From a virus (taxonomy: Duplodnaviria; Heunggongvirae; Uroviricota; Caudoviricetes), in the IMG/VR virus record IMGVR_UViG_2521172734_000004, positions 1-7,811 of that record: a DNA stretch of 7,811 nucleotides. The stretch is one strand, 5' to 3'. This document shows, piece after piece, positions 7,203 to 7,811 of the stretch. The translations under genes were made by a program, and so were the position numbers. Under the pieces are notes generated by a model. It was given only the letters and a program-made list of their open reading frames with translations. It did not search any database and was not told where the DNA came from. The stretch's first letter is position 1, and every line of letters starts with the position of its first letter.

Positions 7203-7811
7203 ATGGTGGATAAGGGAAAAGAGATTCTTGCAGTACGAAATGCAGCCAGCAACGAATATGGCGGGATAAACTGTGAGGTGCAGTTTGAAGACGCGGTGAA
7301 TGAAAAAGGGGAACAGGTATGGCTGCCGTATACTGCAACGGAAACGGATAATACAGAACACGGAAAAGCATTGTGGTCTGGGCTGACAGCAGGAACGTAC
7401 GGAAGTGTGAGTGCCTTTGTCGCCACGGAAGCAGTACTGGAAGCGGCAAAAGCGGCGAAAAGGGAAGAGATTAATATCTGGCGTGATGTGCAGGAGAATA
7501 TGGAATACATGATGGAATTCAACGGAAGGAACTGGGATTACGGCAAGAAGACGTTGTCCAGGATAAGCATGACACGCCTGATGGCAGAGAATAACCGTCT
7601 TCCGGAAGGTTTTGCCTGGACCGACGGGGATAATAATGTGGTGCCGGTGACGGCGGCAGACATCATAGCCCTGTCGGATGCGACAGAGCAGGCGATGTTT
7701 GCGAAGGGGGTGGAGATTAATACACGGCAGTTGCAGATGAAAGCAGAGGTTGAGGCGCTGACAGAGCTGAAGGCGATCCGCAGTTACGTTGTTGGATGGC
7801 CTGCAGGCTGA
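7203..7811 (+). CDS. Phage tail-fiber-associated protein, possibly a tail fiber assembly chaperone (assigned by position; function uncertain)
   Basis: ORF-track frame 7116..7811. A strong ribosome-binding site GAGGAGG (7194-7200) precedes ATG 7203 and GTG 7206. The product (MVDKGKEILAVRNAASNEYGG...LTELKAIRSYVVGWPAG*) is about 202 aa, acidic and soluble-looking, and sits where lambdoid phages carry tfa. I do not securely recognise the family. The stop TGA is the last three bases of the window. Start could instead be GTG 7116, ATG 7125, ATG 7140 or GTG 7206. Confidence 0.6.
   Translation: MVDKGKEILAVRNAASNEYGGINCEVQFEDAVNEKGEQVWLPYTATETDNTEHGKALWSGLTAGTYGSVSAFVATEAVLEAAKAAKREEINIWRDVQENMEYMMEFNGRNWDYGKKTLSRISMTRLMAENNRLPEGFAWTDGDNNVVPVTAADIIALSDATEQAMFAKGVEINTRQLQMKAEVEALTELKAIRSYVVGWPAG

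Follow-up and report, generated by a model that had tools for sequence, protein, structure and literature searches.

Which function should be assigned to a gene that directly follows the side tail fibre gene of a lambda-like prophage, in the position where lambda carries tfa, when its product is not recognizable as lambda Tfa? This question is raised by the last open reading frame (ORF) of the stretch of DNA analyzed here, further called the window, which is 7,811 nucleotides long and comprises the tail end of a lambda-like prophage. In the window, K (197–982), I (1139–1552), J (1613–5008) and lom (5076–5675) are followed by stf (5827–7194, plus strand), encoding a side tail fibre of 455 aa with Pfam phage_tail_N and Collagen matches, and by the ORF under study (7203–7811, plus strand), encoding 202 aa plus stop. 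A first-pass annotation had placed this ORF in the tfa slot, and the gene order J, lom, stf, ORF is indeed the one of lambda. Pfam, PHROG and homologues assign its product to the DUF4376 family of tail fibre assembly proteins (ORF-191 / PHROG 1141 type). Taken together, the protein is quite probably an intermolecular tail fibre assembly chaperone of the DUF4376 class, expressed from the late transcript together with Stf, its presumed client, and probably translationally coupled to it. Most likely, it helps the collagen-containing side tail fibre to reach its three-chain form.

The ORF starts with an ATG at 7203, followed by a GTG at 7206, and its TGA stop codon (7809–7811) includes the final base of the window. 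At the junction with stf (7192–7208, plus strand), which reads TAGAGGAGGTCATG, the TAG stop codon of stf (7192–7194) immediately precedes the Shine–Dalgarno sequence AGGAGG (7195–7200), and 8 nt on the same strand separate the stf stop codon from the start codon of the ORF. Both genes are probably arranged for coupled translation, and no promoter-like site was found between them. Regarding composition, the GC content of the ORF is 51.4%, vs. 56.2% for the window, 56.3% for J, 60.0% for stf and 53.5% for lom. Residues 1–79 of the protein have a net charge of −7 and a pI of 4.4, the entire protein has a pI of 4.67, and a signal peptide-like N-terminus is absent from the translation. The first-pass annotation had described an stf stop codon lying inside the ribosome-binding site of the ORF, a higher AT content than that of the tail genes, an acidic N-terminal half and an end on the last base of the window. 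These descriptions hold, with the stf stop codon abutting or overlapping the Shine–Dalgarno sequence and with a modest difference in composition.

A different start is used by PGAP/RefSeq, in which the DUF4376 coding sequence begins with the ATG at window position 7140, 63 nt upstream and overlapping stf. This start adds 21 residues (7140–7202) that are read within stf in another frame. The start at 7203, giving the 202-aa form, is favored here because the family alignment, the PHROG profile and the ribosome-binding site agree with it. Upstream of both genes, the interval between lom and stf contains a terminator-like hairpin (5779–5814, plus strand), in which a T run adjoins a 13-bp stem and from which 12 nt remain to the stf start. 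Any transcription reaching stf and the ORF from upstream would need read-through of this hairpin, e.g., by Q-antiterminated late transcription, and in the lysogen the hairpin may serve to terminate lom transcription as well. An Rfam search of the window gave no match.

The family to which the protein belongs is clear from profile searches. Residues 81–188 match Pfam DUF4376 (PF14301) with a score of 61.7 bits (cut-off 25; E 1e-16), the rest of the Pfam scan consisting of two sub-threshold chance matches, and PHROG 1141, labelled 'tail fiber protein', matches the protein end to end (E 1e-79). No NCBIfam model matches it. In the PDB, no chain matches the protein or the family profile by sequence and no fold match was obtained either, while a structure search in BFVD returned solely other DUF4376 or unnamed phage proteins. 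A megablast of the ORF against the phage collection gave no match, and tblastn was required to detect its relatives. The nearest phage records, at 42–45% identity, are ORF-191A, C, D and E from the P-Eib prophages of ECOR-9 and genes of PhiR5 and PhiR12, some of which carry the annotation 'tail fiber assembly protein'. They are followed at 33–36% identity by phiP27 L57, Rac-SA53 and SerU-LTIIb. In P-EibA, -C, -D and -E (AF151091 and related), the identity extends over more than 90% of the length, and the gene order is identical as well: J, lom, an orf-401-like collagen fibre gene and ORF-191, the fibres being of the EPclC type with tips ending in LFQRIx. The profile search that the first-pass annotation had proposed thus yielded a confident match and not one to an unrelated family, since the tested members of the DUF4376 family are tail fibre chaperones. 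As far as sequence goes, nothing sets the protein apart within a chaperone family that has been described before, though little studied.

The ORF is real and not a chance ORF, because the DUF4376 and PHROG 1141 matches are strong, 109 homologues of the protein exist, dN/dS is low and the AF2 model reaches a pLDDT of 94. Compared with close relatives, dN/dS amounts to 0.08–0.16 in both halves of the protein, and therefore the gene is maintained by selection. The N-terminal domain does not display the excess of amino-acid change by which an adhesin engaged in an arms race would be recognized.

The relation to the classical tail fibre assembly proteins had to be considered separately, as lambda Tfa and Mu U/U′ have a similar size and occupy the same slot after the fibre gene. 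Homology with either of them was rejected. Among the Pfam matches at E ≤ 0.1 there is none to Caudo_TAP (PF02413), BLASTP gives nothing (best E against lambda Tfa 0.063, over 14 residues) and hhalign returns probabilities of 2.5% (lambda Tfa) and 0.6% (Mu U). As controls, lambda Tfa and Mu U/U′ match Caudo_TAP strongly and do not match DUF4376. The initial impression that the protein could not be matched to lambda Tfa is hereby corroborated, and the protein is a putative functional analogue of lambda Tfa, not a homologue. In literature, the C-terminus of TfaMu is said to be a DUF4376 domain (PMC7882524). Contrary to this statement, U and U′ of phage Mu (locus L097, 2476–3565) match Caudo_TAP only, with no DUF4376 match even at E ≤ 1.

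What lambda Tfa, Mu U/U′ and the protein studied here do have in common is a two-module logic, in which a fibre-specific N-terminal part is combined with a conserved C-terminal part. In an alignment of 43 homologues, residues 1–80 are variable and residues 81–200 are highly conserved, with W93, R94, E98, W111, D112, G114, K115, F137, W139, T140 and D141 among the invariant positions. The same division appears in a cluster-representative library at 50% identity, in which 250 representatives match the protein at E ≤ 1e-3: among the best 150 of these, approximately 107 align only from residue ~51 on, mostly over residues ~75–200. In the AF2 model, the variable N-terminal domain (residues 1–79; 7203–7439, plus strand) consists of three β strands (8–45) and one helix (52–63). 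The conserved C-terminal DUF4376 domain (residues 80–202, Pfam 81–188; 7440–7808, plus strand) consists of a helix (76–99), a hairpin (102–113), a helix (115–129), a second hairpin (138–148) and a long helix (151–185). Given the alignment, the model and its co-variation with the fibre tip, the N-terminal domain would dock on the tip of the fibre, while the C-terminal domain, which is homologous to that of V22 gp27, would act as an oligomerization module.

Several members of the family have been studied experimentally. The best example is gp27 of the Alteromonas phage V22, encoded directly after the receptor-binding fibre gene gp26, which is required to obtain a cell-binding fibre but does not co-elute with the mature fibre in size-exclusion chromatography. 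According to the authors, its sole recognizable feature is the C-terminal DUF4376 domain (PMC7289586). A stronger interaction with the fibre was seen for its homologue A5 gp9, which is nevertheless dispensable for a functional fibre, and both proteins co-purify weakly with their fibres and have been proposed to act as transient caps (PMC10579305). Thirdly, the H-fibre of Campylobacter CJIE1 needs a downstream DUF4376 gene to function (PMC7882524). In our analysis, V22 gp27 matches PF14301 at E 3e-21, and hhalign of the target-family alignment against V22 gp27 gives a probability of 94.6% (E 6.5e-8) over 126 columns. Like the protein studied here, V22 gp27 and A5 gp9 are DUF4376 proteins of ~195–240 aa, encoded directly after a receptor-binding fibre gene and composed of a variable N-terminal and a conserved helical C-terminal part. 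However, their identity to this protein is ~21% and extends across the C-terminal domain only, whereas the N-terminal domains and the client fibres are unrelated. Moreover, the host is enterobacterial here, the phage is a lambdoid siphovirus prophage and the client fibre has collagen repeats. The protein has a short central β-hairpin, and our analysis did not recover a fold like that of intramolecular chaperones. An intramolecular chaperone domain of the Peptidase_S74 type, as in the K1F tailspike and T5 pb1, which is part of the fibre C-terminus and is cleaved off by autoproteolysis, was rejected in addition, as the protein is encoded by a separate ORF in another reading frame, with no Pfam match and no PDB sequence or fold match to such a domain. 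Structural guidance comes from the solved Pam3 gp24–gp25 complex and from TfaMu, in which a variable N-terminal domain binds the fibre and a conserved helical C-terminal domain trimerizes (PMC9608196). The principle proposed for the protein studied here is the one of Pam3 gp25, with an N-terminal β domain that would grip the fibre tip and a C-terminal helical domain that would trimerize.

In the presumed client, Stf, a lambda-type N-terminal domain precedes an Ala-rich coil, which is followed by Gly-X-Y repeats (~120 residues) and finally by a tip of 85 residues. Over the first 160 residues of their alignment, Stf and lambda orf-401 share 74% identity. The C-terminal tip (residues 371–455; 6937–7191, plus strand) is of the 'PfC2' type. 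Across 27 distinct fibres, the alignment of such tips shows a common scaffold, with ..VGSFVLA.., ..PGTW.. and a terminal ..GLFQRIS, and variable loops within the fibre tip. Tips of the Stf type pair with class-A DUF4376 N-terminal domains. The tip is presumed to be both the binding site of the N-terminal domain of the downstream protein and the receptor-binding part of the fibre. In a survey of E. coli prophage collagens, the 55989 copy of Stf, EC55989_1078 (467 aa), was described as having the EPclC* architecture with a 'PfC2' end, which is also the architecture of Stf in the window, and ORF-401 of P-EibA as EPclC (PMC3368898); the words 'downstream', 'chaperone' and 'tail fiber assembly' are absent from the text of that study.

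Otherwise near-identical prophages carry different numbers of collagen Gly-X-Y repeats in Stf (window 6565–6936; L001, E. coli 55989, 7589–8992; L002, O104:H4 2011C-3493, 4382–5992). Full-length Stf copies range from 357 to 512 aa, with 455 aa in the window and 467 aa in 55989. None of the complete E. coli genomes is identical to the window across the collagen stretch of stf, 55989 being the closest with 99.5%. In O104:H4 2011C-3493, stf (L002, 4454–5992) is labelled by PGAP as a pseudogene with 'missing C-terminus'. One open frame of 536 codons nevertheless continues up to the DUF4376 gene and finishes there with an identical ...GLFQRIS, so this label may be a repeat artefact.

The link between DUF4376 genes and tail fibres can be evaluated across relatives. 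To this end, 95 loci with a DUF4376 relative were collected and their fibre/DUF4376 gene pairs were read by a script; a scan of genome contigs yielded two loci only. Wherever the upstream ORF was readable, i.e., in most of the 95 loci, a long ORF on the same strand is present directly upstream of the DUF4376 gene, and the upstream ORFs that were checked are tail fibres. The distance from the fibre stop codon to the DUF4376 start codon ranges from −8 to +20 nt in most readable pairs and is 41 nt in one subgroup. Homologues are present behind fibre genes in contexts resembling those of siphoviruses, myoviruses and podoviruses.

Besides gene position, the type of N-terminal domain goes together with the type of fibre end, as tabulated for four types. 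N-terminal domains of the type present here, ..ITAVRNAxYNExGxIxCEVQF.., accompany fibres ending in ..PGTW..LFQRIx. The type MAFKMSNE.QTIKIFNLRSDTNEFI.. accompanies ..VKNIAFNYIVRLA, the type MQNIKHFTP.. accompanies ..GGTWITASSV, and the type MYHYSP..FYPDEL.. accompanies ..TAWIAIGx. In 62 distinct triples, the identity between the C-terminal 90 aa of the fibres correlates with that between the N-terminal domains (Spearman 0.53, Mantel p 5e-4), a test that is confounded by the shared ancestry of linked genes, whereas the correlation with the identity of the C-terminal domain is much lower (Spearman 0.17). When fibre tips are <25% identical, the N-terminal domains are 21% identical, but the C-terminal domains are still 56% identical.

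Additional evidence is provided by natural chimeras. The protein encoded in locus L066 (3794–4519; 242 aa) is 62% identical to lambda Tfa over residues 1–117 of both proteins (E 2e-53), while its DUF4376 part, at the C-terminus, shares 45% identity with the protein studied here (E 7e-49), and the fibre of this locus ends in ...VKNIAFNYIVRLA, exactly like lambda Stf. A second chimera, in locus L068 (3794–4381), matches positions 2–65 of the Caudo_TAP profile and continues with DUF4376. Both kinds of C-terminal module thus occur naturally on an N-terminal module of the lambda Tfa type. The last example is an invertible cassette in Salmonella enterica subsp. diarizonae CCUG 30040T (L015, 2474–6877), where a Resolvase/HTH_7 invertase gene adjoins the fibre/DUF4376 genes. 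The order in this locus is fibre, DUF4376, an inverted DUF4376 hybrid and an inverted alternative fibre end, which is the layout of the Mu G segment. DUF4376 is found in both accessory genes, in the positions of U and U′, one of them also having a Caudo_TAP N-terminal part, and inverted repeats of 51–81 nt are located inside both fibre ends and both DUF4376 genes. The chimeras and this cassette indicate that the DUF4376 domain does the job of the C-terminal part of Tfa, with which it is exchangeable, and that the N-terminal domain carries the fibre specificity.

Other arrangements were encountered as well. A very common element in Salmonella enterica with an SU10-type adaptor gene (L005, 3536–6606; also L004, L006 and L007) encodes one collagen fibre of 573 aa that terminates in LFRRVA. 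Behind it, DUF4376 genes for proteins of 192 and 201 aa are arranged in tandem, the second of which lacks its own upstream fibre gene. In decayed prophages, the N-terminus of J (L019, 2222–3532) or of Stf (L027, 3647–4603) is fused in frame to the DUF4376 ORF; these fusions arose through deletion of the intervening genes.

Based on these elements, a working mechanism in three steps can be proposed. In the first step, the β-rich N-terminal domain (residues 1–79) would recognize the small Stf tip (residues 371–455, ending in GLFQRIS). Secondly, the conserved helical DUF4376 domain (residues 80–202) would oligomerize, probably into a trimer. Thirdly, this would bring three Stf C-termini in register, upon which the tip and the adjacent collagen triple helix could fold from the C-terminal end. 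The protein may then leave the mature fibre. As A5 gp9 is dispensable, a strict dependence of the fibre on its chaperone cannot be assumed.

The first-pass annotation had named, next to a fibre-specific chaperone, a distal fibre component. In this alternative, the protein would be retained on the fibre tip of the virion, where it could be an adhesin like gp38 of T2/T6, bind a co-receptor, which has been proposed for TfaMu, or shield the tip in the manner of a removable 'cap'. It would thereby shape host range directly, beyond assisting folding. We consider this alternative unlikely. TfaMu stays bound to its fibre and the weak co-purification of A5 gp9 and V22 gp27 would fit a cap, but for V22 gp27 the size-exclusion result points the other way. 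The Stf tip is small (~85 aa), but the variable loops sit in this tip itself. The name 'tail fiber protein', given to relatives by PHROG and in several GenBank records, is a label and not a test, whereas among close relatives purifying selection acts on the N-terminal domain as strongly as on the remainder of the protein, and this domain follows the fibre tip instead of varying independently. A gp38-type adhesin is also disfavored, no gp38-type Pfam match being present at E ≤ 0.1. The confident match to a family with tested chaperones favors the first of the two options, an assembly chaperone.

A more far-reaching version of the chaperone reading can be formulated. The C-terminal part of Caudo_TAP proteins and DUF4376 may be interchangeable but unrelated 'trimerization engines' that have been shuffled onto fibre-specific N-terminal domains, and the DUF4376 protein might in addition be retained on the PfC2 tip as a removable cap, first registering the collagen triple helix and then gating adsorption. 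The natural fusion of residues 1–117 of lambda Tfa to DUF4376 argues for the interchangeable modules, and the proposal as a whole is tentative, a possibility with the odds against it.

The surroundings of the gene can be read in E. coli 55989, where the prophage is 99.5% identical to the whole window except for the collagen-repeat number in stf. The DNA of the ORF is 100% identical in 55989 and 99.3% identical in O104:H4 outbreak strains, and in both RefSeq names the product 'DUF4376 domain-containing protein'; a close copy is present in 56 of 5426 complete E. coli genomes. In 55989, it is the last phage gene, with tRNA-Ser(UGA) located ~0.6 kb further, followed by the hya operon. Directly downstream, a hairpin is followed by ~0.5 kb that is common to other copies of the element and holds the frameshifted remnant of a YkgJ-family cysteine-cluster gene (L001, 9752–10114). 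As ~500 nt of this stretch are common to unrelated IMG/VR copies, it belongs to the phage end and not to the chromosome. The first-pass annotation had expected effectors, an invertase or further fibre cassettes at this position. This does not apply to 55989, where none of these is present between the ORF and tRNA-Ser, but does apply to relatives, given the cargo genes eibA and eaaA downstream of ORF-191 in P-EibA, where 55989 has the prophage end and tRNA-Ser, and the invertase-linked cassette described above. In O104:H4, a DinI-like gene lies downstream of the copy. That the gene is itself such cargo, a 'moron' without a role in the fibre like eib, lom or effector genes, is highly improbable: it is the last gene of the prophage, its GC content lies somewhat below that of the tail genes and cargo genes are found at this end of related prophages, but its coupling to stf is tight without a promoter-like site in between, a signal peptide-like N-terminus is lacking, homologues follow fibre genes in contexts resembling three phage morphologies, and the chimeras with lambda Tfa and the place in an invertible cassette tie the family to fibres.

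The chaperone reading does not describe a new kind of system. Its added value is modest and lies in the pairing of N-terminal domain and fibre tip, the natural Tfa::DUF4376 chimeras and the invertible cassette. The gene, which in RefSeq has no more than the name of a domain of unknown function, receives the working annotation 'tail fibre assembly chaperone, DUF4376 type', covering prophages of pathogenic E. coli, including 55989 and the O104:H4 lineage. The DUF4376 gene is now also paired with a specific tip type, i.e., the PfC2 tips of collagen-like EPclC fibres. For host-range engineering of phages and pyocins, this suggests the rule that the fibre tip and the N-terminal domain of the downstream gene should be moved together, while the DUF4376 C-terminal domain would be generic.
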